Positions 5,521-33,636 of a stretch of 64,000 bases of DNA are shown in pieces. Source of the DNA: Patescibacteria group bacterium (lineage in GTDB: Bacteria > Patescibacteriota > Patescibacteriia > Magasanikbacterales > UBA922). Both the position numbers and the translations under genes were made by a program. How positions within the stretch are numbered: position 1 is the first letter of the stretch; the number at the start of each line of letters is the position of its first letter. The notes under the pieces were generated by a model. It made no database searches and had not been told where the DNA came from. It saw only the letters and a program-made list of their open reading frames with translations. Location: positions 64,846 through 128,845 of the forward strand of contig JAHJIX010000002.1 of the NCBI GenBank assembly GCA_018823045.1, given 5' to 3'.

Positions 5521-7302
5521 TTATTTTCGCTCTCTAATCTCTTCTTCAATCCGTGCAATAAAATCCTCAAAATTAATGGTCTCTTGTTTTTCTTGTCCAC
5601 GTACACGCACCATGACATCACTTCCTTCAAGTTCGTTATCTCCTACTACCAACATATATGGGACCTTTTGTTGACTTGCTTTGCGAATTTTTTTCCCAAC
5701 AGTTTCATCAGCCTCATCAATACTCACACGAATACCAGCCTCTTTCATTTTTTGAGCAATTTGTTTTGCTCCGTCTAAATGATTTTCTGTTGAAACAGGA
5801 ATAACATGTACTTGTACCGGACTCATCCAAACTGGAAATGCTCCGGCGTAGTGCTCGATTAAAATACCAATAAATCGTTCAAATGATCCAAGAATTGCTC
5901 GGTGAATCATAATTGGCGTTTGCTCTTGATTATGATTATCTGTATATGTTGCACCAAAACGAGCAGGCATAGAGTAATCTACTTGAATTGTGCCACATTG
6001 CCACATTCTTCCGATCGAGTCTTTGATATTAAACTCAATCTTAGGGCCATAGAAGGCTCCCTCGCCGTCTTTTATCTCATACGCGAGTCCTTTATCCTCT
6101 AATGCTTTTTTCAATGCCTCAGTGGCATTTTCCCAATCCTCATCTGATCCAATATACTTCTCTGGTCGTGTTGCAATGTAGATGGTATATTCGGTAAAAC
6201 CAAAAGCGGTATAAATATCTTGTGCATACTCTACCATGTCGACAATTTCTTGCTGCAATTGCTCTGCACGACAAAATGAATGCGCATCATCTTGGGTAAA
6301 GGCACGCACACGAAATAATCCATGGAGCACCCCAGATTTTTCATGACGATGGACTAAGCCAAATTCCCCATTTCGAATTGGAAGCTCTTTGTATGAATGT
6401 GGTCGTGCTTTATAAATCATAAGCCCACCCGGACAATTCATTGGTTTCACGGCATATTCTGCTTCGTCAATTTCTGTAAAATACATGTTGTCACCAAATT
6501 TATCCCAGTGTCCACTGGTTACCCACAAATCTTTGTTTAAGATAATTGGTGTTTTTACTTCTGAATACCCACGTTTGCGATTTTCCATGCGGATAAATTG
6601 CTCCAGTTCTGAGTAGACCACCATCCCATTTGGATGCCAAAATGGAAAACCAGGGCCAGACTCTTGGATAGAAAATAAATCTAATTCTTTCCCTAATTTT
6701 CGGTGATCCCGTTTTTCTGCTTCTTCAAGCATGTGGAGGTATGCGTCCAACTCTTCTTGTGTAGAAAATGCAATCCCATAAATACGTTGAAGTTGCGCCT
6801 TGTTTTCGTCTCCTCGCCAATATGCTCCCGCAAGTTTTGTTAATTTAAACGCACCCAACTGACCAGTGGATTCTAAATGTGGCCCAGCACACAAATTAAC
6901 GCTGAGTGCTTTATCTAATTCTTCACCAATATAATAAAAACTAATGTCTTCTCCTCGTGCAATAATTCCTTCGACCAATTCCAATTTATATGGATCATCT
7001 TTACAAATAGCACGTGCTTCTTCTGCACCAACAACTGCTTTTTTAATTGGCAAATCTTTGTTCACAATCCAACGCATTTTCTTTTCAACGGCTTTAAATT
7101 CCTTTTCTGAAAATTGAACATCACCAAAATCGAAATCTTGGTAAAATCCATCATCCGTCCAAGGTCCTACCCCCAAACCAACCTTATGCATCATTTCAAC
7201 AGCAGCCGTCATAATATGACTGGCACTATGTTTTCTTCGAATTTCTAAATCACTTTTTTCCATATATGCTATATTAAATAAGTTACGATTAATATTATTC
7301 AT
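5521..7302 (-). CDS. thrS: threonine--tRNA ligase (class II; editing domain present, N-terminal TGS domain apparently absent)
   Basis: HSASH editing-domain motif. Class II motifs include FRVRAFTQDDAHSFC and the anticodon-binding C-terminal region. 593 aa. Confidence 0.9.
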   Translation of the reverse strand: MNNINRNLFNIAYMEKSDLEIRRKHSASHIMTAAVEMMHKVGLGVGPWTDDGFYQDFDFGDVQFSEKEFKAVEKKMRWIVNKDLPIKKAVVGAEEARAICKDDPYKLELVEGIIARGEDISFYYIGEELDKALSVNLCAGPHLESTGQLGAFKLTKLAGAYWRGDENKAQLQRIYGIAFSTQEELDAYLHMLEEAEKRDHRKLGKELDLFSIQESGPGFPFWHPNGMVVYSELEQFIRMENRKRGYSEVKTPIILNKDLWVTSGHWDKFGDNMYFTEIDEAEYAVKPMNCPGGLMIYKARPHSYKELPIRNGEFGLVHRHEKSGVLHGLFRVRAFTQDDAHSFCRAEQLQQEIVDMVEYAQDIYTAFGFTEYTIYIATRPEKYIGSDEDWENATEALKKALEDKGLAYEIKDGEGAFYGPKIEFNIKDSIGRMWQCGTIQVDYSMPARFGATYTDNHNQEQTPIMIHRAILGSFERFIGILIEHYAGAFPVWMSPVQVHVIPVSTENHLDGAKQIAQKMKEAGIRVSIDEADETVGKKIRKASQQKVPYMLVVGDNELEGSDVMVRVRGQEKQETINFEDFIARIEEEIRERK

Positions 7303-7697
7303 CTACATCATTTATGTAAATGCAATGTTCTTATTTTTTCTTTGATAAGCTCCTGCCTAAGGGTGGCTGAGAGTGACTCTACAGCCATTTTTGAAAAGAA
7401 AACATAAGAATATTGCATGACTTTATAAACCTATACAATTTAAAAACCCCAGTGCAACATGTCCAACTCATATTAGACACATCGCACCGGGGTCATTATA
7501 CTTTTGTATAAAGACGGTTCCACCCGAACGTTTTACTTTACTCTATTTTTACATCTTCCAATAGGAGTACCATAAAAACAATGATCGAGAAGACTCTCAG
7601 CAATATGTCTTCTTCTCTGTCGACCAATACATTTCCTGGGCTGACTATTGTACGTATATAGTAAGACTACTAAAAAACATCACTTTTGTCAATAATA

Positions 7698-8903
7698 TTA
7701 CTCCACCTCTTGCACAAACACCGTCAAATGCTCATTAATATGAGGAACACTTCTCATCCACGCTGGATGAAACTCAACCTCAACTTTATGAACATGATCA
7801 AGTGATAATAGATACCGCCTTACTTCATCTTTTGTTTTTCCAAAAAACATCGCTTTTTCAATTTGATCACTTTCTGGATTTAAACTTACTGTTCCATCAT
7901 AAAACACATGAAGAACTACCTCTTTTGTCAACTCATTATATGAATCAAAGGTCACGGTTGGTGTTGTGTCTGCAGGATGAACCATTTCACCACCATCAAT
8001 TGCTCTCTTCATTAATTGATCTTTTGACCACTCTCCCATTTGCTCTTCATTATAAAAAATTCCCATCACAAGTGCCGTTCCTTTTACATGAAACTCACTC
8101 ACCTCTTTGCCTGGTTCAGTATCTGCCTCAATAGTAATGTCGCCAACATCATAAATACCAGCCATACCACGACCAACTGATTGACTAAATTGCTCTTCAG
8201 ATTTTACCCGAAATGTATTTTTCATTGTCTCAGTTGCGGCATCAATATCTTTTTGAGATAACACACCAAGTGTTCTCACTCCACCTTTCATTGAGCTGTC
8301 ACTTGTCGCATACACATCTTTTTGTCTTGTTGGATTAAGACCCGGAATAACAAATGTAGATGGTCCAATGTCATTTGCGGCTCCCTCCGTATCTGAATAG
8401 ACTTCTACATTGTCTACTGTTCCATTTGCAGGCACGGTTACCCCTGATTTTAAACGAAATAAAACGTTATCACCACTCAGTAAACGAGTTGTCGCAACTA
8501 ATGGCTGTGCTGCCGCTGATGTATTGTGCAATGTAACATACCCTGTTGCTTGCCCTGGTTCTTCTTTTGTTCCTGTAGGGAAAAAAACATCATTTAATAC
8601 AATCTCTGTACTGGTGACCATGTACCCCACCCCATGTAACTCTTCTTCATCGAGTACAAGAGTAAAATCAGTACGTAAGTCAACAGGGGTCTTTTTTGTA
8701 AAAATAGTCACAACTGCTCGTTTTGAAGACATGAAAATAATAATTCCAAGCAGCACTACTGTGATGAGGAGAAATGTTAAAGCGATAAATTTATAAAAAC
8801 GGACAGGCTGCTCTGTAGGAAGCGTGCCCAATTGGCGTGAGGGTCCCATAGACAAATAAATAAATGATCTAATAAATAAAGTAAATATCTTATTCAATAA
8901 CAC
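7698..8903 (-). CDS. hypothetical membrane-anchored protein downstream of pilB
   Basis: N-terminal TM helix, then a soluble domain. Its start overlaps the pilB stop by about 14 bp, so it is co-operonic. Confidence 0.45.
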   Translation of the reverse strand: MLLNKIFTLFIRSFIYLSMGPSRQLGTLPTEQPVRFYKFIALTFLLITVVLLGIIIFMSSKRAVVTIFTKKTPVDLRTDFTLVLDEEELHGVGYMVTSTEIVLNDVFFPTGTKEEPGQATGYVTLHNTSAAAQPLVATTRLLSGDNVLFRLKSGVTVPANGTVDNVEVYSDTEGAANDIGPSTFVIPGLNPTRQKDVYATSDSSMKGGVRTLGVLSQKDIDAATETMKNTFRVKSEEQFSQSVGRGMAGIYDVGDITIEADTEPGKEVSEFHVKGTALVMGIFYNEEQMGEWSKDQLMKRAIDGGEMVHPADTTPTVTFDSYNELTKEVVLHVFYDGTVSLNPESDQIEKAMFFGKTKDEVRRYLLSLDHVHKVEVEFHPAWMRSVPHINEHLTVFVQEVE

Positions 8904-10611
8904 GGAAGACTTCTTCTACTGAAGTCATTCCTTCTAGTGCTTTTAACAATCCATCTTGCACCATCGTTACTGTCCCATGCTCAACGGCAATATGTTTAAT
9001 ATCATACTCAGCAACCTTCCCCGTTAAAATAGATTGCTCAATTTCTTCACTAATAACAAATATTTCATAAATACCTAAACGCCCTTTATATCCAATCCCA
9101 TTACACTCCACACATCCCTCTGCCCCATAATACACTTTTGGGATTTCGGCAACTTCCTTTTTTTCTTGTTCTGGTAATACATCAAATATTTTTTGGATTG
9201 ATTCTTGTGTTTCTGCATCAAGTGTTATTTCTTTTTTACATGCAGGACAAAGCCGTCTCACCAAACGCTGACCAATCACACAATTTAGGGCAGGGGCTAA
9301 TAAAAATGGTTGCACTCCCATAGATAAAAATCTAGGAATTGCCCCAAAGGCATCATTCGTATGGATTGTAGACAACATCAAATGCCCGGTAAGCGCCGCT
9401 TGAATTGCAATTTCTGCTGTTTCTAAATCACGGATCTCCCCCACCATCGCAATATCTGGATCTTGCCGAAGCATTGAGCGCAAACCACTTGCAAATGTAT
9501 ACTCACGACTTCTGTCAATTTGACTTTGATTGACCCCGTCCATTTTATATTCAACAGGATCTTCTAAAGTAATGATTTTAACATCTGAATTGTTGAGCAA
9601 CTTCATGATCGCATATAATGTGGTCGTTTTACCACTTCCTGTTGGCCCAGTCGTAATAATCATGCCATTTGGACGATCAATTTCTTGTTGTAATTTTTTC
9701 AGTGCTCGTCCACGTAAACCAAGATCTCCAAGAGACTGAATCGATTTATTTTGAACAAGTAAACGCATAACAACACTTTCTCCGTATACAGTTGGAATTG
9801 TTGATACACGAATGTCCACAGCTCCCTCTTCAAGACGAATGCCAAAACGTCCATCTTGCGGTGTGTTTGTTACATTAATTTTTAAAGAAGACAATAATTT
9901 CAAACGAGAAATTAATTGCTTATAACTTGTTTTTGGTAATTCAGCGGCATCATGCAAAATTCCATCTAAACGAAACCTCACCATAACTCCACTGTCTTCC
10001 GCTTCAATATGCACATCAGAAGCCCCTAACTTTAATCCAGCTCCCATGATAAATGTTACCAAATCTGTCGTTGTCTTTTTTTTAAGCAATGTTGCAAAAG
10101 AGCTAAAATCTGTTACGGACGCTTGCACTTGAAGCAAATCTTCAGGAGCAATACTAATATCTTTTTTAATCGCTGTCACAATTGGCAGTCGTTTATACAG
10201 TTCAATCACATGATCAAAACTTTGTAGAGAAATCGCATAAATTTCTCCATGTGCATGCATTCGTTCTTCGACTTGATACAACAATTCTTTTACTGCAGGG
10301 TCTTCCGGATTTACTGCCCCAATGCGCACTTCTTCTTGCGTTACAAAAAAACAAATCGCTTGCAACTCTTTTGCTTGCTTTTCAGGTACTTGACGCAATG
10401 CTTCATGCCCAATCGGAAAATGTTCTAAATCAATATAAGAAAATCCACTATGCTTTGCATACTGCTTTACCTCTCGTTCTTTTTCTTTTAAAGAAACATC
10501 TTCCATTTTTTTTGAAAATGCCTCTGATACCTCTGTTGTTGCAATATGCAATACAGGCTTTCCTGTTCCTGACGGATCTGACATATACTTACCCTTTTTT
10601 AAATAATCCAA
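8890..10611 (-). CDS. pilB: type IV pilus assembly / type II secretion ATPase (PilB/GspE family)
   Basis: Walker A motif GPTGSGKTT, Asp/His boxes, and a C-terminal tetracysteine CPACKKE...CVECNGIGYKGR. Confidence 0.85.
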   Translation of the reverse strand: MDYLKKGKYMSDPSGTGKPVLHIATTEVSEAFSKKMEDVSLKEKEREVKQYAKHSGFSYIDLEHFPIGHEALRQVPEKQAKELQAICFFVTQEEVRIGAVNPEDPAVKELLYQVEERMHAHGEIYAISLQSFDHVIELYKRLPIVTAIKKDISIAPEDLLQVQASVTDFSSFATLLKKKTTTDLVTFIMGAGLKLGASDVHIEAEDSGVMVRFRLDGILHDAAELPKTSYKQLISRLKLLSSLKINVTNTPQDGRFGIRLEEGAVDIRVSTIPTVYGESVVMRLLVQNKSIQSLGDLGLRGRALKKLQQEIDRPNGMIITTGPTGSGKTTTLYAIMKLLNNSDVKIITLEDPVEYKMDGVNQSQIDRSREYTFASGLRSMLRQDPDIAMVGEIRDLETAEIAIQAALTGHLMLSTIHTNDAFGAIPRFLSMGVQPFLLAPALNCVIGQRLVRRLCPACKKEITLDAETQESIQKIFDVLPEQEKKEVAEIPKVYYGAEGCVECNGIGYKGRLGIYEIFVISEEIEQSILTGKVAEYDIKHIAVEHGTVTMVQDGLLKALEGMTSVEEVFRVIE

Positions 10612-11833: not shown

Positions 11834-12895
11834 ATGCTTCGTAAAACAAGTTTTCAAAAAATGCGCTCCATTTTCTTTTTTTCCTTACTTATCCTGTTGG
11901 GGGTACTTTCTCTTGTTATCATGCAACCATTTGCCTACCCAATTTTTTGGGCAGCAGTTATTGCGATTATGTTTCACCCTGTGTACAAATGGATTGATAA
12001 ACACATTAAACTCCCAGGCATTAGCTCTTCTATTACCGTTATTATTGTTGTGCTTGTCATATTCCTTCCACTAGTCCTCTTATCTGCATTACTTATTCGT
12101 CAATCGACAGACATTTACCAACAAGTCACAGCAGGTGACCTTACTCTTACGATAGAGCATGTTATGACACAATTATCAGAAAGTAAACTTGCGCCACTCT
12201 TTACTTTTTTTCAAAATGATTGGGCAAACTATGCAACAGAAGGAGCAAAACAAATTTCTTTGTTTATCTTTAATAATCTCAAAGTCATTACCCAAAATTC
12301 TTTCATGTTTCTCTTTCTCTCAGCAGCCATGCTCTATACCTTGTATTTTTTCTTAAAAGATGGAGAAAAAGTCTTACAAAAAATCATGTATTACTCCCCT
12401 CTTGGAAATGAATATGAACACATGCTCTACGAAAGATTTACATCAACATCCAGAGCTACACTAAAAAGCACCCTCATTCTAGGTGGTATACAAGGAACAC
12501 TTGGAGGACTACTTTTTTTAGTCACCGGAGTTGAAGGAGCCTTCATCTGGGGGGTTATCATGACCGTCCTTTCTGTTATCCCGGCACTTGGCTCTGTCAT
12601 TGTATGGCTCCCAGCAGGTATCATTATGCTTGCACTCGGCAATACTGCAGAAGGTCTGATTATTTTACTCTTTGGCTCAATTGTTATTAGCAATATCGAC
12701 AATGTCCTTCGTCCAATCATGGTCGGAAAAGATACACAACTACATCCACTCCTTGTACTCTTTTCAACCTTAGGAGGAATTTTCTTCTTTGGTGTTTCTG
12801 GATTTATTATCGGACCAATTGTTGTCTCTCTTTTCCTTGCAATCCTATCAATTTACGATCACCACTACGCAAAAGATCTTAAAAAGAATGTGTAA
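11834..12895 (+). CDS. putative AI-2E family (PerM/UPF0118-like) membrane transporter
   Basis: 353 aa, about 8 TM helices, glycine-rich middle region. The architecture is typical of AI-2E permeases. Confidence 0.45.
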   Translation: MLRKTSFQKMRSIFFFSLLILLGVLSLVIMQPFAYPIFWAAVIAIMFHPVYKWIDKHIKLPGISSSITVIIVVLVIFLPLVLLSALLIRQSTDIYQQVTAGDLTLTIEHVMTQLSESKLAPLFTFFQNDWANYATEGAKQISLFIFNNLKVITQNSFMFLFLSAAMLYTLYFFLKDGEKVLQKIMYYSPLGNEYEHMLYERFTSTSRATLKSTLILGGIQGTLGGLLFLVTGVEGAFIWGVIMTVLSVIPALGSVIVWLPAGIIMLALGNTAEGLIILLFGSIVISNIDNVLRPIMVGKDTQLHPLLVLFSTLGGIFFFGVSGFIIGPIVVSLFLAILSIYDHHYAKDLKKNV

Positions 12896-12977: not shown

Positions 12978-13961
12978 TCATCTCTTTTTACTTTTTTGAT
13001 CAATATATTTTTCCACAGCCTCTTTTGTACTTAACCAATTTCTTTCCTTTTTTATGGCATGTAATATTCCTTTTCTGGCAAGTAAACTTAAATATTCTTG
13101 TGAATAAGGAACCATCTTACTTAATTCACTTAATGTTATATATTCATTTTTCATATAAGCCGTCTTTGGATCAACATGTTCTACAGCCTCTAAATATAAA
13201 CCAAGAGAACGATCTATTGCCTGTGCCACAAATAATACAAACGGCGCTAAATCTCCCTTATTTGCTTTGTTTAATACATCATAATATTTTTTTCTATCTT
13301 GTTTTAAAATTATTGCTGGTGGATACCCCATCTGCATTAAAATTAAATTCATAAAAAGTCGAGCTGTACGTCCATTTCCATCTACAAAAGGATGAATAGC
13401 CACTAACTTATAATGTGCCAAAGCAGAAAACTCTATAACACTCATGTTATTTTTTGATGTATTTAACCACTCAAAATACTCACTCATTAGTTTGGGTACC
13501 GAAATTGGATTTGGAAGTACAATATTTGCACCAAGTATTCTTACTCTGTGAATTCTATACCTCCCGGCAAACTCATCTTCTATATCTGAAAGAATAATAC
13601 CATGCAATGCCAATAATTGTTTTTCTGAAAACATTGCCTTTTTTAATACAAATTTTTCAAGTAATTCAATTGCTTTTTTATGATTTGTCGTCTCAATATG
13701 CTCTCTCAAAGTTTTTCCTTTCACGGTAATTCCTTCACGTAAAACAAGAGCTGTTTCTTTTAATGTTAACGTATTTCCCTCTATAGCATTGGAATTATAT
13801 GTCCATTCTATAATAAATTGCTCACGTAATTTACGTAAAATATCTTTTTGTAAGGGTCGAAAACTATCTAAATTCTTTTTTTTTTCTTCTATCCTGTTTA
13901 ATATTTTTTGATCTAATAACATATAATAAATGATTTTTTTTAAAGTATCGGATAGGGCCAT
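12978..13961 (-). CDS. Fic family protein (class II Fic with N-terminal inhibitory SxxxEG motif and C-terminal wHTH-like tail)
   Basis: Canonical Fic motif HPFVDGNGRTAR. Upstream inhibitory-helix motif SNAIEGN. Confidence 0.85.
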   Translation of the reverse strand: MALSDTLKKIIYYMLLDQKILNRIEEKKKNLDSFRPLQKDILRKLREQFIIEWTYNSNAIEGNTLTLKETALVLREGITVKGKTLREHIETTNHKKAIELLEKFVLKKAMFSEKQLLALHGIILSDIEDEFAGRYRIHRVRILGANIVLPNPISVPKLMSEYFEWLNTSKNNMSVIEFSALAHYKLVAIHPFVDGNGRTARLFMNLILMQMGYPPAIILKQDRKKYYDVLNKANKGDLAPFVLFVAQAIDRSLGLYLEAVEHVDPKTAYMKNEYITLSELSKMVPYSQEYLSLLARKGILHAIKKERNWLSTKEAVEKYIDQKSKKR

Positions 13962-14181: not shown

Positions 14182-14268
14182 TGGTGCCGCGGGCGGGATT
14201 TGAACCCGCGCGGTATTTCTACCAAGGGATTTTAAGTCCCTCGTGTCTACCAACTCCACCACCGCGGC
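14182..14268 (-). tRNA. tRNA-Leu (anticodon UAA), type II with long variable arm, CCA encoded
   Basis: Manual fold: acceptor GCCGCGG/CCGCGGC, anticodon loop CUUAAAA, variable-arm stem GGTA/TACC, T-loop TTCAAAT. Confidence 0.8.
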
Positions 14269-14423: not shown

Positions 14424-14675
14424 TCAATATACATGAATAAGCCACCCGTAAATACGTAATTTCAATACTGCTTCTAATATGTTTAATCGTTTCACAGGAT
14501 GACCAACCCAAAAATTTTTTTTATACTCTGGGATATCAATACAACTATAAAAAGACAAATACCCATGAAAGACATATGGGTCACACACAGTACAACCATA
14601 ATATGTTAAATATTCAATAAGCTGATCAATACAAGGCTGTTCCATGTATGGATATCGGTAAATGAAAATATCCAT
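14424..14675 (-). CDS. small hypothetical protein (83 aa), paralog A of a tandem pair
   Basis: Strong RBS AAGGAGGTG 7 nt upstream of the ATG. About 45% identity to the ORF at 14862..15113 (shared MDIF.Y, YL.YY.C, GYL.F, DIP, IL.L.LRI.GW.I.VY). Confidence 0.6.
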   Translation of the reverse strand: MDIFIYRYPYMEQPCIDQLIEYLTYYGCTVCDPYVFHGYLSFYSCIDIPEYKKNFWVGHPVKRLNILEAVLKLRIYGWLIHVY

Positions 14676-14761: not shown

Positions 14762-14820
14762 TTTTACCAATCCAACGTCCCCCCAACCTGATACTCCGTT
14801 ACTCTCGTCTCAAAAAAATC
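14762..14820. repeat. direct repeat: duplicated copy of the nrdB 3' end (last 13 codons plus stop plus downstream)
   Basis: About 60 bp near-identical to 17937..17996. Reverse-translates to RVTEYQVGGTLDW*. Confidence 0.75.
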
Positions 14821-14861
14821 ATACAGTGCTGGATTCTCATGTGGAATCCAGCACTTTTTGC

Positions 14862-15113
14862 TTAATATACATAAATACGCCACCCTTGAATTCGTAATTG
14901 TAAAATAATCTCTAATATTGTTACTCGTATTGCTCCACTTTTCCCCAGATACATTGAATGATGTACGGGAATATCCACTGGAACATGAAATGTTAAATAG
15001 CCCTCAAAAATATCAGGATTTAACACATCGCAATTATAATATTTCAAATATTGAATCAAGACCCTCCTATACTGTTTTGATGTGTATCCATGCACATAGA
15101 CAAATATATCCAT
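14862..15113 (-). CDS. small hypothetical protein (83 aa), paralog B
   Basis: RBS AAGGAGGTG. Paralogous to 14424..14675. Confidence 0.6.
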   Translation of the reverse strand: MDIFVYVHGYTSKQYRRVLIQYLKYYNCDVLNPDIFEGYLTFHVPVDIPVHHSMYLGKSGAIRVTILEIILQLRIQGWRIYVY

Positions 15114-15354
15114 GCAGCACCTCCTTTTTATTACCGTATCATATTATATGATTTTCCCCAAATATTCTATTGACAAATTTCAATATATGTGATTAACTAC
15201 GCTGTTGTCCTATTATCTATACTATTGAATCTATTTTACACTGTAGAATATACTCAATAGTGTAGATGCCCATAACAGGGCTCTACGCTTTTCTTTGCTG
15301 AGGTCACATGACCTTAGCATGGTTTCTTTAAGCACATCACGATGGAGGAAAATC

Positions 15355-16050
15355 GTGAAATACGCCTTTGCCATCTTTTTGATGGCTCTCAACATTGGAT
15401 ATGCTCAGGCGCAACAGCCAACGAGCATACCCAAAGACAATCCTGAGCTTCTAGATAAGCTCATGAACATCCACAATGAATTGCTTAATCAACCCCCCAT
15501 TGGGAACAATTATGTTCCTCAAGACTTCCCGTCGCCGTTTTGTCGGCAATTCCATAGGATGTTCATGTCCTACATGGAGACCCGAACAAGCAAACTGCCA
15601 CAGGAGACCCAACTCCGTAACCGCGCGATGGGAGCGCGACGGATCCCTGCACCATTCACGGTCCCAGCAGATATATGGGAGCAATACATTGAGTGCCTTC
15701 CATATAAGAGCGCCCCACTTAAAATCAAGAATACCAAAATGGCAGGAGAAGGATCTAAAGAAAATAAACTTAGAATCCACCTCCGTGCACAACAAGTAGA
15801 AATAGTAAAAACTTTCCGCCATGTTCTTGATGATGCCTGGAGCTATCCAGAAATCAAATACCCCTCTGAAGAATGCAGAAATGTGATAATCCTACTCAGG
15901 ACAAACGCAAAATTGACTGCATATATAGCAGAGAACTTAGAGTCAAAAGTCACTTCTGACCCAAGAAAAATCCCACCATTACCACTGACACTATTGTCTC
16001 CGAAACAATGGGAAGTGTATATTAGCTGTCTGCCCCAAATTAAGCAGTAG
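15355..16050 (+). CDS. secreted hypothetical protein with two W-E-x-Y-I-x-C-L-P motifs
   Basis: GTG start preceded by GGAGG. Signal peptide VKYAFAIFLMALNIGYAQA. GC content clearly above the genome background. The ORF track extends the frame back to 15295. Confidence 0.5.
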   Translation: MKYAFAIFLMALNIGYAQAQQPTSIPKDNPELLDKLMNIHNELLNQPPIGNNYVPQDFPSPFCRQFHRMFMSYMETRTSKLPQETQLRNRAMGARRIPAPFTVPADIWEQYIECLPYKSAPLKIKNTKMAGEGSKENKLRIHLRAQQVEIVKTFRHVLDDAWSYPEIKYPSEECRNVIILLRTNAKLTAYIAENLESKVTSDPRKIPPLPLTLLSPKQWEVYISCLPQIKQ

Positions 16051-16109
16051 CAATCCCCTCCTAAATAGCCCACCACGACAAACCCTCCAAAAGAAACCGC
16101 GCCCACCCA

Positions 16110-16137
16110 GAGCAACGCCCCGCGTTGCTCTTTTCAA
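16110..16137 (+). terminator. rho-independent terminator
   Basis: GAGCAACGC-ccc-GCGTTGCTC perfect 9-bp stem followed by TTTTCAATTTT. Confidence 0.7.
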
Positions 16138-16190
16138 TTTTAAAATTTGGCTTAATCTAGCAAAATATTAAATATTAGTGGGTAGGGGGC

Positions 16191-16219
16191 TTGACAAAAT
16201 GGTCAAAACGTGCTATAAT
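16191..16219 (+). promoter_or_regulatory. perfect sigma70 consensus promoter (TTGACA-17 nt-TATAAT)
   Basis: ttgacaaaatggtcaaaacgtgctataat read directly from the sequence. Confidence 0.7.
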
Positions 16220-16365
16220 GAATCGTTTTTTAAAATAAAGAGATATGCACATTGCTGCATCTGTACTGAAAAAGACAATACAGATGCAGTAGCGTGGATT
16301 CCATGCTCGACAACTGGGGCAACTTTGCCCCCACCAATTCCCCATTATGGGGAAGGAGAAAAGGT

Positions 16366-16803
16366 ATGCGTTTCATCGCTATCCTCATCCTCACCGCCAT
16401 CATCCCCGCCATCGCCGCCATCGCCGCGCCCGCCACCCCCGTCCTCGCCGCGCCCGCCACCCCCGTGGCGCCCGCGCCCGCCACCCCCGTGGTGGTCACG
16501 ACCGAGAAGGAGGTCAACTTCATCACCCCGATGAACCTGTCCCGCCGCTCGGTTATGGAAGAGAGGCAGCACTGTCACAAGGTGCTGACCTCACTCACCG
16601 CCCTCGAACGGGCTGAAAAGCACGGAGCCAGGGCCTACACCTTGGCCCGTGCCAAGACCCGAAAGGCCCTCTGCCCCGAGAGGAAGAGGGAGTGCATTGA
16701 GGAGCACCAATTGATCCTCACCCGCAAGTGGTATCCCCACTGGGACCACACGGCACCAATCAAGGATTGGTGCCAGAAGGTGCTGAGGATCAACCGGGGA
16801 TAA
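16366..16803 (+). CDS. small secreted protein with PATPV repeats and a C-terminal 4-Cys domain, in a strongly GC-rich segment
   Basis: RBS AAGGAG 8 nt upstream. Signal peptide MRFIAILILTAIIPAIAAIAA, then (A)PATPV x3. About 60-65% GC versus about 35% background. Alternative overlapping frames on both strands appear to be GC artefacts. Confidence 0.55.
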   Translation: MRFIAILILTAIIPAIAAIAAPATPVLAAPATPVAPAPATPVVVTTEKEVNFITPMNLSRRSVMEERQHCHKVLTSLTALERAEKHGARAYTLARAKTRKALCPERKRECIEEHQLILTRKWYPHWDHTAPIKDWCQKVLRINRG

Positions 16804-16921
16804 GTACTGCTCATTTGCGGTACCTTTCCCCACACACCCGGCGAGCGAATGCCTGAAAAACTTTCGCTCGCCCACTTTACTATCATTTTAAACTTCATTA
16901 AAGTGACAGAAGAGTCGCAAC

Positions 16922-16956
16922 AAAAAACATCCCGACTAAGTCGGGATGTTTTTTTG
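16922..16956. terminator. bidirectional terminator
   Basis: CATCCCGAC-taa-GTCGGGATG flanked by A6 and T7 runs. Confidence 0.7.
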
Positions 16957-16964
16957 TACGATTA

Positions 16965-17897
16965 TTATTCACTATCAATCAGCGCGTACCCTTCAATCAC
17001 AGCATCAAGAAAAAATTCTTCAAGTGCTAAATAATCTCCTTTTATTTGCGCCTTTTTTAAATATTCATAATATTTCCTTTTCTTTTCTTGACGAATAATC
17101 GCTGGAGGAAAATCGGCTTCAAGCAACATACCAACCATCAATAAACGACCAATTCTGCCATTTCCATCTGAAAAAGGATGGATCTTTTCAAAATCAGCGT
17201 GAAAACGAGGAATAAATGACAAAATATCTTTTTTCTTTTCCTTAAACAAACCCTTTATTAATTCTGGAACTTTCAAATAATTTGCTGTTACCACCCCAGA
17301 ACCAACAATCCTTACACCATGATTTCGATAACACCCTGCATTATCGAGTATACTATTCATAAGAATTTGATGTAATGACAACATTGTTTTTTCATTTATT
17401 TTTTCCTTTTTACTCACATGTTCAAATACCCTCAAAAAAGCAGCCTGATGATTTTTGGCTTCCATGTGCTCACGCATACTTTTGTTTTTCACCGTTACTC
17501 CATCAAACAAAATTTGAGCAGTATCCTTTACTGTCAGTGTTGACCCTTCAATACTATTACTATTGTATGTCAAAGATAAAACAAATTCATCAAATAAATC
17601 TTTTCTCTTCTTGAGTAATGGGACTATTCCCTTATGCTGTTTTTGCTTTTCCAAAACAATATTTCTTTTCTCTTCTAAAAGATTTTTTCCACTTTTCTTG
17701 ACTCCTGTATATTTTGTATACAATTCATTAATAATTTTTTTATTTGATTCTCTTGGCTCTTTTTTGCGATAAAGCCAATTATTAAGAGTAACAAAAGATA
17801 CTCCAAGCTCACGCGCAAGTGATTCTTGAGTTTTATTAAAATTTTTGAGAAGAATTGTTAATTTTTTATCATAACTCATATATTCAAAGCATATCAA
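16965..17897 (-). CDS. HTH-Fic protein (N-terminal XRE-type HTH plus Fic domain)
   Basis: Fic motif HPFSDGNGRIGR. Inhibitory motif SNSIEGS. N-terminal LARELGVSFVTLNNWL helix-turn-helix. Confidence 0.85.
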   Translation of the reverse strand: MICFEYMSYDKKLTILLKNFNKTQESLARELGVSFVTLNNWLYRKKEPRESNKKIINELYTKYTGVKKSGKNLLEEKRNIVLEKQKQHKGIVPLLKKRKDLFDEFVLSLTYNSNSIEGSTLTVKDTAQILFDGVTVKNKSMREHMEAKNHQAAFLRVFEHVSKKEKINEKTMLSLHQILMNSILDNAGCYRNHGVRIVGSGVVTANYLKVPELIKGLFKEKKKDILSFIPRFHADFEKIHPFSDGNGRIGRLLMVGMLLEADFPPAIIRQEKKRKYYEYLKKAQIKGDYLALEEFFLDAVIEGYALIDSE

Positions 17898-17940
17898 AGT
17901 TTATAAACTTTGTCAATAGAGCAGCAGTTTATAAACTTTT
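17893..17940. promoter_or_regulatory. two palindromic operator-like sites upstream of HTH-Fic
   Basis: CAAAGTTTATAAACTTTG (18-bp perfect palindrome) and AGTTTATAAACT 16 nt apart, lying between the fic start and the nrdB stop. Confidence 0.45.
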
Positions 17941-17996
17941 ACCAATCCAACGTCCCCCCAACCTGATACTCCGTTACTCTTGTTTCAAAGAAATTC
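17937..17996. repeat. direct repeat copy at the authentic nrdB 3' end
   Basis: Matches 14762..14820. Confidence 0.75.
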
Positions 17997-18973
17997 TTTT
18001 CTTTATTTAAATCAATAGCTTCACTCATCCATGGGAATGGATTTGATACCCCAAACTGTTCCGGGAGACCAACACGAGTTAAACGACGATCAGCAATATA
18101 CTCAATATATTGTTTAAATCCTTCTGCATTCATGCCAAAAATTCCTTTTGGAAATACTGTTTGTGCAAAGGTATATTCTAAGCGAGTCCCCTCTTTTACC
18201 AAATCAACAATATGTTGTTGAAACTCAGGAGTCCACAATTCTGGTTGTTCTTCTTTAATAGAATTAATTATATTGATACCAAAATTCAGATGTTGTGACT
18301 CATCGCGCATAATATACTGAATTTGCTCAGCTGACCCAATCATTTTATTTTGACGCTGAAAACCAAACATAACAGCAAAAGCAGAATAGAAAAATATTCC
18401 TTCTAAGATAAGCGCAAAGACAGCAATATTTTCTAAAAACTTTTGGTCAGCTTCAAAAGTACCTGTTTTGAAATTTGGATCAAAGATTCCTTCATTAAAA
18501 CTCAAGATAAAAGAAGCTTTTTCGTAAATTGCATCTACTTCTCTATACATATTGTAAATTTCACCCTCATCGAGCCCTAAACTTTCTACAATATATTGGT
18601 ATGCATGTGTGTGAATTGCCTCTTCATAGCCTTGGCGCAACATATACATACGACACTCTGGAGAGGTTACGTGTTTATATGAAGCAAGTACAATATTGTT
18701 CGCTGCAATAGAATCAGCAGTAGTAAAAAACCCTAGTACGGTTTTAAATGCCTTTCGTTCATCTGCTGTCAGTACTGAGTCAGATTTCCACTGCTCAATA
18801 TCATTTTGCATGGTAATCTCTGTTGGCAACCAATGATTTGCATTCCCAGCAAGATACGCTTCCCACGCAAATTTATGTTTCATAGGAGACAATTGCATGA
18901 CATCAGCATCTGCTCCATTAATAATACGCCGCTGATTGATATCAACTCGTTTTTCTGTTTTTGTGATAGGCAT
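17939..18973 (-). CDS. nrdB: ribonucleoside-diphosphate reductase beta subunit (class Ia R2)
   Basis: Di-iron ligand motifs EEAIHTHAY and RDESQHL. SNPFPWM. About 340 aa. Confidence 0.9.
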   Translation of the reverse strand: MPITKTEKRVDINQRRIINGADADVMQLSPMKHKFAWEAYLAGNANHWLPTEITMQNDIEQWKSDSVLTADERKAFKTVLGFFTTADSIAANNIVLASYKHVTSPECRMYMLRQGYEEAIHTHAYQYIVESLGLDEGEIYNMYREVDAIYEKASFILSFNEGIFDPNFKTGTFEADQKFLENIAVFALILEGIFFYSAFAVMFGFQRQNKMIGSAEQIQYIMRDESQHLNFGINIINSIKEEQPELWTPEFQQHIVDLVKEGTRLEYTFAQTVFPKGIFGMNAEGFKQYIEYIADRRLTRVGLPEQFGVSNPFPWMSEAIDLNKEKNFFETRVTEYQVGGTLDW

Positions 18974-26597: not shown

Positions 26598-26630
26598 AAT
26601 AATCCCGACTAAATCGGGATTATTTTTTCT
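26598..26630. terminator. bidirectional terminator (hairpin core CCCGAcTAAATCGGG, similar to the one at 16922)
   Basis: 11-bp stem plus T-run. Lies between tkt and the efp 3' end. Confidence 0.65.
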
Positions 26631-29093: not shown

Positions 29094-29609
29094 TTACGGA
29101 AGATAGTAGGTTCGCTCATTAAGTGGATCTGTATTATCTCTATACTGGCGCTGTTCTCGATCTACTTCATCATATAAATCTCTTTCTGCATCCATATATT
29201 CACTTTGATCTCTATTGATATCATCCTCCACTAATATATTTATAACAAATGTCGTAATAGCATATGATGTTAAAATAATGACAATCCCCATTATACCACG
29301 TACCATTGTTTTTTTTCCTATTTCAATCTTTCCTTCATCTCCAGCAGCAGTCATAATCATAAATCCAGCATAAATGGTGTAAGCAAAAAATACCGTCCCG
29401 ACAAGCCCTAGGCTCGTACGGACAAGTAATGCAATTATAACACGAGGATCAGTCGCTTCACCCAAATTACCTCCATCTTTACCAGCGGTAGCCTCTAGTT
29501 GTTCTTGTAGCTCTTCCGTATATGTCGGTCCCTGCGCAACGACCTGCATTGGTTGAAACATTATTCCCAAACAAAGAATCGCAAATACACCAAACAAGAA
29601 AAAACGCAT
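29094..29609 (-). CDS. TrbC/VirB2-like pilin-family paralog A (core plus acidic C-terminal tail)
   Basis: Signal peptide; core YAGFMIMTAAGDEGK...IMGIVIILTSYAITTFV. Confidence 0.5.
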   Translation of the reverse strand: MRFFLFGVFAILCLGIMFQPMQVVAQGPTYTEELQEQLEATAGKDGGNLGEATDPRVIIALLVRTSLGLVGTVFFAYTIYAGFMIMTAAGDEGKIEIGKKTMVRGIMGIVIILTSYAITTFVINILVEDDINRDQSEYMDAERDLYDEVDREQRQYRDNTDPLNERTYYLP

Positions 29610-29613
29610 ATAA

Positions 29614-30087
29614 TTAATTTTTATATTTTAACTGACAATTAAAGTCTCCATTTCGAACCATACTCCAAAGTCCACAATCTACTTGCATATCTGTTGTTCG
29701 GTATACTTTCCCTGCAATATTGCTACTGAGTGATCGTGCAACAAATGTGGTAATGCTGTATGCCACCATAATAACAAATAATCCAATAATAGCTCGTTTT
29801 ATTGTGTCTCGTGCTTTCGATACTTTTTCTTCATTATCTCGTGCAGTGAGCAACCAATATCCAGACATAAGAACAAGTACAAAAAATATTGTGCCAATAA
29901 ATCCAAGCATCAAACGAATAAGCTCTGCAACAAATAATTGTGGTGGCACAGGAACTCCCATACCAGCAGCTCCCGCCGCAGCGCTAATTTGCTCATTTAT
30001 TTGACCAACCAATCCTTGTGCTGAAACAGTTGCTGTGATAAACAAACCCGCAAGAAGACTAAAGAAAAAAAATCGTTTCATAAACAT
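29614..30087 (-). CDS. pilin-like paralog B (core plus short 2-Cys C-terminal tail)
   Basis: Signal peptide; core SGYWLLTARDNEEK...IIGLFVIMVAYSITTFV. Confidence 0.5.
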   Translation of the reverse strand: MFMKRFFFFSLLAGLFITATVSAQGLVGQINEQISAAAGAAGMGVPVPPQLFVAELIRLMLGFIGTIFFVLVLMSGYWLLTARDNEEKVSKARDTIKRAIIGLFVIMVAYSITTFVARSLSSNIAGKVYRTTDMQVDCGLWSMVRNGDFNCQLKYKN

Positions 30088-30100
30088 AATTAAATAGATT

Positions 30101-30508
30101 TTACGGATTCAACTGAGGTGTCTGTGACGCATTAGACGATGCTGCGCTACGAGCAACAATTTTTGGCACGACAAATGCTGTAATGCTGTACGCACCCACG
30201 GTGATAATTAAACCAATAATTGCAGCTTTAATGATATCCATCGCTTTGTCTACTTTTCCTTCATCTCCTCGTGCTGTCATCCACAAATATCCTGCATAGA
30301 CCATCAACACAAGAAAGATAGTCCCCACGAAAGAAAGAAGCAAACGAATCATATATCCAACATTTTCAGCCAAAGAAATATCATTCACATTTTCATACCC
30401 TGCTTTTTCTGCCGTATCAGCTACCAGTCCAGCTCCTAGATCAATTGCATAAACAGGTAGTGCGACAAAACAGCAAAATAATGCAAGAAACACAAATATT
30501 TTTTTCAT
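30101..30508 (-). CDS. pilin-like paralog C (core only)
   Basis: YAGYLWMTARGDEGKVDKA...IIGLIITVGAYSITAFV. Confidence 0.5.
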   Translation of the reverse strand: MKKIFVFLALFCCFVALPVYAIDLGAGLVADTAEKAGYENVNDISLAENVGYMIRLLLSFVGTIFLVLMVYAGYLWMTARGDEGKVDKAMDIIKAAIIGLIITVGAYSITAFVVPKIVARSAASSNASQTPQLNP

Positions 30509-30529
30509 ACAGTTACATATAAATATTAT

Positions 30530-30898
30530 TTATTGAGGTAAAAATCGAAACAACACAAACGCATTAATTGCGTAGGCACTCATAATAATAATTAACCCAA
30601 TAATTGATGTTTTAATAATTTCCATTGCTTTTTCTACTTGCCCCTCATCTCCTCTTGCTGTCATCCATAAATATCCGGCATAGATCATCAGCACCAAAAA
30701 TATTAACCCAACCATGCTTAAAGCTAGATTAATAAATGTTCCAACCACGTTTGCCACATTTTCTTCTGCAACACCAGCTGTACCACCAGTTGTCTTTACT
30801 TTGTTTACGGCATCACCCAGTGTTGCAGTATACACTGTAGAAAATAACAAAAAGAAAGAAAAAAAACTTACAATGGCAATGCTGAATATTTTTTTCAT
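30530..30898 (-). CDS. pilin-like paralog D (core only)
   Basis: YAGYLWMTARGDEGQVEKA...IIGLIIIMSAYAINAFV. Confidence 0.5.
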   Translation of the reverse strand: MKKIFSIAIVSFFSFFLLFSTVYTATLGDAVNKVKTTGGTAGVAEENVANVVGTFINLALSMVGLIFLVLMIYAGYLWMTARGDEGQVEKAMEIIKTSIIGLIIIMSAYAINAFVLFRFLPQ

Positions 30899-30933
30899 AT
30901 ACGTATATTTAAAAAACTAGATAACACACAATA

Positions 30934-31542
30934 TTATTCTGTTGGTCCTTTTGCACAAAGTGCCTCACACTCTGGATAAGTTTTAATACCCCCATTCCAT
31001 CCCCATTCAGTATATGGATCTACGGCAGTTATTGTTTCTCCTATTAATTGACAACGCTCATAGGAATCCATACGAGCAGCCCAACTCGTTGCATATTGTC
31101 CTGTTCTATCACAGCAACAGCCCACAGGTGCACCATCAATTTGCCCTGCACTACTACCAGATGTTCCTTGTACACCAGCAACTAAACGACCAAGCACCAA
31201 ATCAACAACACCATATGATGCAATAATAACAAGCATGCCAATCGTTGCTGCAATAATAGTTTCACGTGCTTTTTCTGCTTTTCCTTCATCTCCTCTTGCA
31301 GTAATCCAACGAAAACCTGCATAAAACATGAGACCAAAAAATACCAGACCTACTAAAGTCAAAGCCCATTTAATAATTTTTCCTGTTTCTGTTTCAATAT
31401 TTGTTTGTGGAATGCCGGTTCTGCCTGATAATACTTTTACATTTGTAAATGCGTCACCAATGTCTTGTGCAGATACATCAAAAAACCAAAAAGAACCAAT
31501 ACTAATGGCAATAAGAGTTCCGTATATTGCTATTTTTTTCAT
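30934..31542 (-). CDS. pilin-like paralog E (core plus C-terminal Cys-rich ectodomain with a CCC motif)
   Basis: YAGFRWITARGDEGKAEKA...TIGMLVIIASYGV. C-terminal segment has 7 Cys. Confidence 0.5.
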   Translation of the reverse strand: MKKIAIYGTLIAISIGSFWFFDVSAQDIGDAFTNVKVLSGRTGIPQTNIETETGKIIKWALTLVGLVFFGLMFYAGFRWITARGDEGKAEKARETIIAATIGMLVIIASYGVVDLVLGRLVAGVQGTSGSSAGQIDGAPVGCCCDRTGQYATSWAARMDSYERCQLIGETITAVDPYTEWGWNGGIKTYPECEALCAKGPTE

Positions 31543-31549
31543 AGTTTTC

Positions 31550-31882
31550 TTATACTAATCCACTAAATACAAAGACAGTAATTGCATATGACGCAAGCAC
31601 AATAGCCATCCCGATAATTGCCGCGATAATAGTATCTTTTCCTTTTTCTACTTGCCCTTCATCTCCTCGTGCAGTCATCCACAAAAATCCTCCGTACACC
31701 ATAAGGATAAAAAAAAGAATCCCTATGATAGACAAAATACTTCCGACGATGCCACCGGCAAGAAGTTCAACTGTTTTACTATTTTTTAATCCTGTGCCAC
31801 CAGCTGTTTCGTTTAGTCCATACTGTGCATACACAGTAGCTGGAATAAGAAAAAAACTAAAGACACTTATAATATATTTCAT
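31550..31882 (-). CDS. pilin-like paralog F (minimal core, 110 aa)
   Basis: YGGFLWMTARGDEGQVEKG...IIGMAIVLASYAITVFV. Confidence 0.5.
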   Translation of the reverse strand: MKYIISVFSFFLIPATVYAQYGLNETAGGTGLKNSKTVELLAGGIVGSILSIIGILFFILMVYGGFLWMTARGDEGQVEKGKDTIIAAIIGMAIVLASYAITVFVFSGLV

Positions 31883-31908
31883 ATAGCTTAAACTGTATTT
31901 AAAAACTA

Positions 31909-32490
31909 CTATTCTATACCTGCATCACAACACACTATTTCATTTCCACCAGGACACAACCCTATATAACATTCATTTCCTGGAGTACAATTCTTTATTC
32001 TTTCGACTTCTGTGTCTCCAAAAACAAATGTACAATTTGCAATATTTTGACAGGCATATTTTTCATTTTGAGCAACACATTTGGCATCAGCAGCTACTGT
32101 TGGCCCCCCCGTATTATTTGTCACACTCTCAAAAATAAACTGCGTTATGGCATAAGAACTCAGCACAATGACAAGCCCAATCACGGCCGAAATGATAGTT
32201 TCTTTTCCTTTGGTGATACGTCCTTCGTCTCCTCTTGCGGTCATCCAAAGAAATCCACCATAGAGCATCAGGCCAAAAAATAATATACCCACAAAAGAAA
32301 GAGCGCCACCAATAACATCACCCACAAGTACACGAGCATCTGTGGTCTTTTTTAATTGTGTTTTTCCGACAGTTTCTCCTAAACCATAATCTTTGGGAAT
32401 AGTAATTGCTGACACAACAATAACAGACGTAAACAGTACAATAGCTGCTACTATACTTCCACATAATAAAGCAAAGTACTTTTTACGCAT
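31909..32490 (-). CDS. pilin-like paralog G (core plus C-terminal Cys-rich ectodomain ending GLCPGGNEIVCCD)
   Basis: Core identical in parts to paralog H, with about 150 bp of near-identical DNA. Confidence 0.5.
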   Translation of the reverse strand: MRKKYFALLCGSIVAAIVLFTSVIVVSAITIPKDYGLGETVGKTQLKKTTDARVLVGDVIGGALSFVGILFFGLMLYGGFLWMTARGDEGRITKGKETIISAVIGLVIVLSSYAITQFIFESVTNNTGGPTVAADAKCVAQNEKYACQNIANCTFVFGDTEVERIKNCTPGNECYIGLCPGGNEIVCCDAGIE

Positions 32491-32517
32491 ATAAAACGCA
32501 ATTATACATAGTATTAT

Positions 32518-33090
32518 TTAATCACAACACACTATTTCATTTCCACCAGAACACAACCCCCTTTGACACTGCCAATCAAATTGACCACAAGCATTTAAAA
32601 ACTCACTTATAGGAAGAGTTGGATCACTCATTTCTGCTCCTAGCGTAGAACATTGTTTAATATTTTTACAACTCCAACCAGGATTTACCTGTTCACAAGT
32701 TGCGGTAGGTCCCTCCTGTTGCTGATTGCCAGAAACACTCTCAAAAATGAACTGAGTAATAGCATAAGAACTGAGCACAATGACAAGCCCAATCACGGCC
32801 GAAATGATAGTATCTTTTCCTTTTGTGACATGTCCTTCGTCTCCTCTTGCGGTCATCCAAAGAAAACCACCATAGAGCATCAGGCCAAAAAACAATACAC
32901 CCATAAAAGATAAGGCGCCACCAACAACATCACCAACAAGTATACGCACGTCTGTTGATTTGTTTAATTTTGCTGTACTTGCAGCTTCACCTAAACCATA
33001 ATCAGCAGCTGAAACGATGAGGACAGACGTAAACAATACAATAGCGACTGCTACACTTCCGAGTAAGAGCTGAGAGTACTGTTTACGCAT
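32518..33090 (-). CDS. pilin-like paralog H (core plus C-terminal Cys-rich ectodomain ending GLCSGGNEIVCCD)
   Basis: YGGFLWMTARGDEGHVTKG...VIGLVIVLSSYAITQFI. Confidence 0.5.
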   Translation of the reverse strand: MRKQYSQLLLGSVAVAIVLFTSVLIVSAADYGLGEAASTAKLNKSTDVRILVGDVVGGALSFMGVLFFGLMLYGGFLWMTARGDEGHVTKGKDTIISAVIGLVIVLSSYAITQFIFESVSGNQQQEGPTATCEQVNPGWSCKNIKQCSTLGAEMSDPTLPISEFLNACGQFDWQCQRGLCSGGNEIVCCD

Positions 33091-33107
33091 ATAAGCAATA
33101 GTTATAA

Positions 33108-33521: not shown

Positions 33522-33636
33522 ATGTGTAAATAAAATATAATATAATTATGAATACGCGTTGACAGTGAGAGCCTACGCCTACTCATAATGATAAGATCTG
33601 GGAAGAACTAATTTCTCCCCAGATACATAATCATAA

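Follow-up and report, generated by a model that had tools for sequence, protein, structure and literature searches.

Laterally acquired genes are recognised, in the amelioration framework of Lawrence and Ochman, by their atypical base composition and codon usage. Another group of described systems consists of bacterial messenger RNAs (mRNAs) that are stabilised or gated by their own structure, among them the ompA and S-layer transcripts, with hairpins in their 5' untranslated regions (5'UTRs), and the mRNAs of the type I toxins hok and aapA1, type I toxins being shorter than about 60 amino acids (aa). Patescibacteria, whose genomes are small, are believed to spend their lives attached to other cells, and for such a lifestyle secreted or surface proteins are likely tools. 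We have analysed a stretch of 64 kb from contig JAHJIX010000002.1 of a Patescibacteria genome (hereafter the window), and within it an open reading frame (ORF) of 145 codons, ORF145, which lies in a short GC-rich segment close to the ribonucleotide reductase gene nrdB and encodes a protein predicted to be exported. Our preferred reading, to which we give a probability of roughly 0.62, is that ORF145 belongs to a foreign gene cassette of about 590 bp which was acquired laterally, encodes a small exported protein, sits in a Fic module beside nrdB and is transcribed from a consensus promoter into a structured mRNA.

The first-pass annotation of this DNA had pointed to a GC-rich segment in an AT-rich genome, and both the GC profile and a maximum-likelihood two-breakpoint GC segmentation of the window bear this out. 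The segmentation delimits a block of about 590 bp (16286-16875) with 62.0% GC against 36.4% for the rest (log-likelihood gain 63.5), the mean of the whole window being 36.7%, and it returns a second, milder block of 46% GC at 15268-16130. As to the extent proposed earlier, the start lies close to where it had been placed (about 80 bp before the ATG), but the end does not coincide with the stop codon: the block runs on through a 3' hairpin, up to 16875. The richness is as exceptional in the window as had been claimed, with 65% GC in the top 450-bp stretch (at 16394) and only 49% in the runner-up elsewhere, a tRNA cluster. The transcription unit comprises the following features.

16286-16875, no strand assigned: GC-rich, putatively foreign segment made up of the last ~80 nt of the 5'UTR, the ORF and two 3' hairpins (segmentation and GC profile).
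16191-16219, plus strand: sigma-70 promoter, TTGACA (16191-16196), 17 nt, TATAAT (16214-16219), exact consensus in AT-rich, host-like DNA.
16226-16365, plus strand: 5'UTR of about 140 nt, its start placed from the -10 box; four hairpins, fold z-score (z) = -5.3.
16366-16803, plus strand: ORF145, predicted exported protein of 145 aa, characterised by GC at codon positions 1, 2 and 3 (GC1/2/3) and chi-square; its sole true match is itself, NCBI MBU0661239.1.
16429-16500, plus strand: three tandem 24-nt units (CCCGCCACCCCCGT...), starting at 16429, 16453 and 16477, which encode PATPV with an 8-residue period.
16796-16957, plus strand: 3'UTR with four consecutive hairpins, fold z = -10.2.

ORF145 (16366-16803, 64.4% GC) departs from the resident genome in composition and codon usage as a horizontally acquired gene would (GC 64% vs 37%). 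Its GC1/2/3 values are 0.58/0.49/0.86, while GC3 is 0.20-0.27 in the flanking genes nrdA, nrdB and two Fic genes; the period-3 GC signal is strong (chi-square p = 2.7e-11), holds in the non-repetitive C-terminal domain taken alone (0.53/0.45/0.83) and is matched by a GC3 of 0.75-1.00 in every 20-codon window from ATG to stop. Amino-acid usage is likewise GC-shifted, with Arg exceeding Lys. These observations show that ORF145 truly codes for a protein and that it is foreign in composition to the resident genome. When third positions are sorted by predicted pairing, GC3 is 0.93 at paired and 0.76 at unpaired sites, hence high at both, so that stems alone are insufficient to account for the composition. 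Codons ending in C prevail (CCC 10/12, ACC 11/13, GCC 15/22, ATC 11/12, CTC 7/12; C3 0.53 vs G3 0.34), Lys is always AAG (9/9), AGG takes 5 of the 13 Arg codons and CTC is preferred to CTG, a pattern unlike that of the GC-rich ORFs of related genomes, which use CCG, CGC and CGG. The long ORFs previously reported in other frames on both strands are present.

The gene and its surroundings can be traced back to the source population. The ORF145 protein is identical to MBU0661239.1, MBU1721234.1 and MBU1901058.1, from three NCBI metagenome-assembled genomes (MAGs) of Patescibacteria, and lies two genes from nrdB in each of them, and the window sequence is contained in GCA_018814165.1 (contig JAHJAC010000016.1). 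Logan contigs that are 100% identical cover window positions 14776-16451 and 16422-17966 in run SRR2540949, and 14776-16338 and 16412-17966 in run SRR2544004; as these single-run contigs from two runs span the region, the GC-rich gene and both of its junctions were recovered independently. Both runs are biofilm metagenomes from 'modern marine' deep groundwater of the Äspö Hard Rock Laboratory (PMC5364579).

The product is 145 aa long and not 146 as first annotated, and the three PATPV repeats (residues 22-26, 30-34 and 38-42) and four Cys (70, 103, 110 and 136) noted at that time are confirmed. Its N-terminus reads M-R, then FIAILILTAIIPAI, then AAIA/AP, with a hydropathy peak of 2.8; read from the sequence itself and without a predictor, residues 1-20 form a putative Sec signal peptide of n-h-c layout with an AXA motif (15-residue hydrophobic core, Pro at -7, AIA followed by A), for which a signal anchor is the alternative. 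The mature protein is predicted to be of about 14 kDa and basic, with an isoelectric point of 9.8. AlphaFold2, run on the single sequence, models helices at 63-84, 88-102, 108-119 and 130-142 with a mean predicted local distance difference test score (pLDDT) of 67, and with block values mostly between 80 and 88 over residues 61-110; a fold search of this model against PDB returned generic helical-bundle matches only (best E = 1.7). The four Cys together with six His, among which are HWDH and an HCH motif, would be suited to forming disulfides or to binding metal.

ORF145 is preceded by an exact TTGACA-17-TATAAT promoter, as had been annotated, which scores 12/12, carries an extended -10 element (TG at -15/-14, TGcTATAAT) and is located in AT-rich, host-like DNA. 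Only two promoters of exact consensus occur in the window, the other (50699-50727, minus strand) standing directly upstream of a tRNA Ala-Phe-Pro cluster. The four hairpins of the 5'UTR lie at 16253-16291, 16292-16306, 16316-16331 and 16338-16354. The first contains the perfect 11-bp stem described earlier, which exists at 16255-16265 / 16279-16289, about 8 nt to the left of the place first given for it, and within the last the hairpin said to abut the ribosome-binding site, CCCCATTATGGGG at 16340-16352, does adjoin the Shine-Dalgarno sequence AAGGAG (16353-16358). The latter sits 7 nt upstream of the ATG, and its first four bases have a predicted pairing probability of 0.71-0.99. The earlier claim of strong local expression signals is accordingly well founded with respect to the promoter, which is exact, and the post-transcriptional control thought possible is matched by a Shine-Dalgarno sequence predicted to be partly sequestered. 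In Rfam, only tRNAs of the window reach the gathering score, and 15200-17000 gives no credible match even at E up to 10; the leader thus corresponds to no cis-regulatory RNA or riboswitch with a covariance model there. On the minus strand, no promoter-like site was found in 16100-16900.

Downstream of the coding region come hairpins at 16796-16831, 16840-16872 (a perfect 10-bp stem) and 16873-16915, followed by a bidirectional terminator at 16920-16957. The core of this terminator, ATCCCGAC-TNA-GTCGGGAT, recurs in the window (16929-16947 and 26602-26620) and in three of the related nrdB loci, labelled L with a number in what follows (L036 at 18420, L065 at 11055, L067 at 10685); it is common to genomes whose nrdB proteins are only ~80% identical and follows nrdB directly in L065 and L067. 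The hairpin at 16929-16947, considered as a possible signature of the cassette, was rejected as such, being a lineage-wide terminator motif.

A structured leader had already been described and is real (z = -5.3 against dinucleotide shuffles), but the description understates the case, as the coding region, the 3'UTR and ORF251, the next gene upstream, are hairpin-dense too. Measured against dinucleotide shuffles, the coding region of ORF145 has z = -7.0. Codon permutation as the reference gives -6.3 to -6.95, and a synonymous shuffle that preserves both protein and codon usage still gives -5.25; with the protein kept, this last value means that codon choice itself creates structure. Perfect in-frame hairpins occur within the ORF, e.g., GGCACCAATC-aag-GATTGGTGCC at 16752-16774, a long-range closure is predicted between codons ~6-10 and codons ~139-142, and across the coding region the sense strand has the more negative z values of the two strands. 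As a baseline, 30 long ORFs of the window have a mean z of -0.57 (sd 1.3), all of them at or above -2.8 except ORF251 (z = -5.8, with -7.4 for its 5' region), and GC-rich ORFs from relatives range from -0.8 to -3.8. The hairpin density through the coding region and 3'UTR is new with respect to the earlier annotation, and no known family accounts for it. The leader hairpin was sought in metagenomes and the in-ORF hairpin in viral contigs, in both cases by exact-pattern scans that gave no match, and literature searches turned up no description of ORF145 or of Patescibacteria genes that are GC-rich and dense in hairpins. Some gene-specific selection may have acted besides donor composition.

The search for relatives of the protein was extensive. 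A word-indexed search of 5.8 billion protein clusters returned ORF145 itself as the sole match. Full HMMER against 1.84 billion representatives brought up two candidates, P0005 and P0006, which were rejected as translations of tandem-repeat DNA whose scores had been inflated by 12-38 weak repeats. Overall, no true homologue other than itself was found among ~15 billion proteins; scans of genome, metagenome and viral collections with back-translated peptides and tblastn against phages and plasmids gave no match either, and Pfam, PHROGs, PADLOC and NCBIfam yielded nothing above noise for ORF145, ORF251 or the nearby ORF83. No closest homologues in a distant donor lineage were thus found for ORF145, and the donor cannot be named. 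The proposal of acquisition from a high-GC donor retains the support of foreign codon usage and of absence in relatives, against which stands the failure to find a donor in those ~15 billion proteins. The suggestion that an actinobacterial host was the source fares worse: homologues are lacking, and the choice of CCC, AGG and CTC is unlike the pattern of high-GC Actinobacteria, which typically favour CCG, CGC and CTG, a weak pointer as it draws on only 145 codons.

To compare the locus with that of relatives, the neighbours of ORF145 have to be introduced.

12978-13961, minus strand: Fic327, a second Fic-domain protein with C-terminal HTH_17, less than 5 kb from Fic310.
14182-14268, minus strand: tRNA-Leu(taa), a conserved landmark at the far side of the variable interval between nrdB and tRNA-Leu.
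14762-14819, minus strand: orphan copy of the nrdB 3' end, left copy of a 58-nt direct repeat.
14862-15113, minus strand: ORF83, 83 aa, inside the module, 43% identical to a paralogue (14424-14675) just outside it.
15355-16050, plus strand: ORF251, probably 231 aa from GTG 15355, with a putative signal peptide, four Cys and 44% GC; Logan calls the 231-aa product.
16109-16131, plus strand: intrinsic terminator of ORF251, AGAGCAACGC-ccc-GCGTTGCTCT then a T-run, dividing the two cassettes.
16965-17897, minus strand: Fic310, a helix-turn-helix (HTH)-Fic protein convergent with ORF145 (Pfam Fic and N-terminal HTH_3), conserved module component by nrdB.
17937-17994, minus strand: true nrdB 3' end (...FFETRVTEYQVGGTLDW*), right copy of the 58-nt direct repeat.

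In 80 related nrdB loci, tblastn detected no homologue of the ORF145, ORF251 or ORF83/ORF109 proteins, and for Fic310 a single weak Fic-domain match (28% over 86 aa). The loci of the closest relatives in the genome collection (L001, L002, L015, L018 and L035) show the order nrdA, nrdB, 1-2.5 kb of variable DNA, tRNA-Leu(taa) and AI-2E permease, the gap from nrdB to tRNA-Leu being 5 kb in the window, and in L001 and L027 uppS follows nrdB at 47-76 nt and then comes tRNA-Leu, that is, an empty site. The closest relative found, L086 (JGI 3300005086; nrdB 91% and Fic 86% identical), has the order nrdB, HTH-Fic, a convergent gene for a 93-aa secreted protein, uppS, CBS and tRNA-Leu. This 93-aa gene is AT-rich, codes for a protein predicted to be secreted with four Cys and has a near-consensus promoter; its product shares no similarity with ORF145, and the two promoter regions give no convincing alignment. 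L086 has no GC spike at the locus, no homologue of ORF145, ORF251 or ORF83 and no degenerate second copy of the nrdB-end repeat. ORF145 is thus patchily distributed, being absent from the same locus in the 80 relatives and in L086, and it fills a slot that holds a different gene in L086. From the gene orders of L086, L001 and L027 it follows that Fic plus at least one small secreted-protein gene make up an accessory module directly after nrdB. It is worth noting that L001, L002, L008, L018 and others have Patescibacteria-type nrdAB synteny while their GTDB representative MAGs are titled 'uncultured Gammaproteobacteria' or 'Bdellovibrionales', labels which look wrong.

Other GC-rich genes are met with in the same neighbourhood. 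ORFs with GC3 > 0.75 in surroundings of much lower GC occur at nine of the 80 nrdB loci, and five of these (L024, L027, L028, L036 and L067) have one no more than 3 kb downstream of nrdB, in a zone that represents 16.5% of the sequence examined. Those with GC3 > 0.8 are found at 13442-13784 (L027), 6226-6762 (L024), 7006-9591 (L028), 17746-18342 (L036) and 12127-12426 (L067), and L036 has another high-GC3 ORF 6.7 kb downstream of nrdB. Three of the nrdB-proximal ones resemble lipoproteins, one of them (L028) with a Pro-rich linker, and the L027 contig ends within a 76% GC ORF of ADPDPELDAEA repeats that adjoins tRNA-Leu. None of the GC-rich ORFs of relatives is homologous to ORF145. Foreign GC-rich genes for exported proteins therefore seem to recur near this nrdB site in the lineage, and their recurrence fits repeated lateral acquisition.

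The segment between the true and orphan nrdB ends (14820-17936, 3.2 kb) can be regarded as a module. The two 58-nt copies are 95% identical with a 44-nt identical core and stand 3175 bp apart; the orphan copy encodes the same 17 residues and stop as the true end, with three synonymous changes, and Logan contigs end inside both copies. Judged from its sequence, the repeat resembles an attachment-site duplication. Of the marks of an integrative genomic island, flanking repeats derived from the 3' end of the target and an empty site are both present, while a recombinase is not: Pfam, PHROGs, PADLOC and NCBIfam scans of the module proteins revealed no integrase or transposase. Fic310, whose 86% identical orthologue adjoins nrdB in L086, and Fic327 match the PADLOC candidates PDC-S04 and SoFic (E 4e-43 and 1e-35). 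The annotation of ORF251 (15295-16050) varies, with 103 aa in GCA_018814165.1, 140 aa in MAG prefix KKG38 and 231 aa in Logan, the GGAGG that stands 8 nt before GTG 15355 favouring the 231-aa form. ORF251 has no homologue but itself and no similarity to ORF145, and its predicted model is too poor to use (pLDDT 43). Of the two 83-aa paralogues on the minus strand (14424-14675 and 14862-15113), neither has a family match; both are equipped with a strong ribosome-binding site and with a long, perfect terminator hairpin of their own.

Elsewhere in the window, three further regions deserve mention. On the minus strand, 29094-33900 holds about nine small paralogous genes, diverged and arranged in tandem (repeat families D1, D2, D4, D6 and D8); both of those scanned match Pfam T4SS_pilin, the score being above the cut-off for one and just below it for the other. 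On the plus strand, 42710-45715 encodes what is probably a large surface protein: its 1001 aa include seven Cys-rich DUF4215 repeats and two CarboxypepD_reg domains. A perfect 23+23-nt palindrome at 50284-50329 (GACAAATAGAAAAAGTTCGCCTT / AAGGCGAACTTTTTCTATTTGTC), the right arm of which stops at the 3' end of tRNA-Pro, probably serves the tRNA Ala-Phe-Pro cluster as its terminator.

How the cassette may have come to its present state can be outlined as follows. Its source would be an organism or a mobile element of roughly 60% GC or more, and the acquisition would be recent, the third positions (86% GC) being without drift toward the ~23% of the host. The promoter is expected to drive strong transcription from about 16226, giving an mRNA of about 735 nt in the form of a chain of more than 12 hairpins, which would probably be long-lived, and the UUCCCCA/UGGGGAA hairpin, lying partly over the Shine-Dalgarno sequence, probably limits translation initiation. 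The product would be exported by Sec, probably with cleavage after AIA at residue 20, and would display outside the cell a Pro/Ala/Thr spacer and a basic, probably disulfide-bonded four-helix domain. It is tempting to suppose that such a surface placement suits contact with a host-cell surface or with the biofilm matrix.

Several points weigh against this scenario. With a very recent transfer one would not have expected the search for a donor or any homologue of ORF145 to come up empty, as it did, and the module offers neither an integrase nor a transposase by which it could have been inserted. The repeat-bounded part includes Fic310, which is also by nrdB in L086, so that the repeat gives no date for the arrival of ORF145 itself. 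Expression of the gene, export and cleavage of its product and the stability of the mRNA are predictions from sequence, and the structure model, with its mean pLDDT of 67, was built from a single sequence. Since ORF251 is only 44% GC and nevertheless hairpin-extreme, some of what is peculiar may be owed to selection and not to a donor. This leads to the view that ORF145 is a native or long-resident gene whose GC content and hairpins were selected gene by gene, for a stable or nuclease-resistant mRNA or for a second function of the RNA, and do not reflect a donor's bias. The synonymous shuffle with the protein kept (z = -5.25), the similar structure of ORF251 (z = -5.8), the sense strand being more negative in z than the antisense strand across the coding region and the missing donor homologue all speak for it. 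We nevertheless hold it to be unlikely: unpaired third positions still show a GC3 of 0.76, in the first 45 codons, which are rich in C and pair little locally, GC3 is 1.00, GC1, GC2 and amino-acid usage are shifted too, and the closest relative has no ORF145 and carries an AT-rich gene in its slot. In a bolder reading, which we consider unlikely as well, ORF145 and ORF251 would represent an undescribed class of Patescibacteria accessory cassettes, small secreted-protein genes swapped at the Fic-associated slot by nrdB, whose whole transcripts have been selected as chains of GC-rich hairpins, coding region included, the RNA being unusually nuclease-resistant or long-lived, or acting as a structured RNA besides its role as template.

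The extreme structure can also be read without a conventional protein gene. That the locus yields a large structured non-coding RNA, a kind of RNA that typically stands out by its high GC in AT-rich genomes, and that the 145-codon ORF is fortuitous, would agree with a ~735-nt transcript that folds as a whole far better than shuffles, with the other exact promoter of the window being just upstream of a tRNA cluster, with the lack of protein homologues and with long ORFs in five frames, an open frame of this length being, by our estimate, not very improbable at 62% GC. It is contradicted by the very strong period-3 signal, which persists in the C-terminal domain alone (0.53/0.45/0.83), by a canonical Shine-Dalgarno sequence 7 nt from an ATG that opens a textbook signal peptide, by the confident helical domain that AlphaFold2 draws from a single sequence and by the lack of an Rfam match even at E up to 10, and we find it most improbable. 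Only slightly easier to entertain, and still very unlikely, is a toxin-like or dual-function mRNA in the style of type I toxins, very stable and self-locked, with its Shine-Dalgarno sequence sequestered and a membrane-inserting N-terminus. The sequestering hairpin, the closure between codons ~6-10 and ~139-142 and the extreme structure are those expected of such an mRNA, and the hydrophobic N-terminus, the lack of relatives and the defence-like surroundings, with two Fic genes matching PDC-S04/SoFic, are in keeping with it; the ORF, however, has 145 codons with a coding signal throughout and is no short toxin, its N-terminus, with a cleavable AXA site, looks like a signal peptide, and the minus strand of 16100-16900 offers no promoter-like site for an antisense RNA. 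An assembly chimera or binning contamination, to which the extreme jump in composition and the break of Logan contigs within the PATPV repeat might point, is essentially refuted: low-GC Patescibacteria sequence flanks the gene on both sides in a single contig, contigs from two independent runs, 100% identical to the window, meet in an overlap at 16422-16451 and between them bridge both junctions, and three MAGs have the same arrangement. We therefore retain lateral acquisition of a foreign cassette as the preferred reading. An acquired accessory gene without known relatives is ordinary in kind, and it is the structure signal held in common with ORF251 that is left unexplained.

Taken on these terms, the locus indicates that such a genome can take in a foreign gene for an exported protein and, as predicted from its promoter, express it strongly, from a slot by nrdB which in a related genome holds other cargo. 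If the hairpin density turns out to be functional, it would be a rare bacterial case of selection on RNA structure across a whole coding region; if not, ORF145 is one more acquired gene without relatives. Among the known systems, integrative islands with attachment repeats resemble the locus in that the 58-nt nrdB-end repeat restores the reading frame with synonymous differences and bounds a 3.2-kb accessory segment missing from L001 and L027. They differ from it in that the module has no integrase, excisionase or transposase, that the Fic module of L086 is without the repeat and that the repeat does not delimit the GC-rich gene. Fic310 and Fic327 match the models of the Fic defence candidates SoFic and PDC-S04 and occur in a variable hot spot, although they are only neighbours of ORF145, linked to it here by position alone. 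With the ompA, S-layer, hok and aapA1 mRNAs the ORF145 transcript shares a strong promoter, a long and hairpin-rich 5'UTR, a partly sequestered Shine-Dalgarno sequence and a 5'-3' closure, whereas its excess structure extends throughout a coding region of 145 codons and the 3'UTR, and, unlike hok and aapA1, it codes for a predicted signal-peptide protein and shows no antisense RNA signal. Finally, ORF145 resembles ameliorating acquired genes in its sharp break of GC and GC3, its accessory distribution and its position in a variable interval by a tRNA gene; what sets it apart from the usual acquired gene is an unusually large contrast (GC3 0.86 vs ~0.23), the absence of any homologue in ~15 billion proteins and a foreign piece that consists of a single 590-bp cassette behind a host-type promoter.

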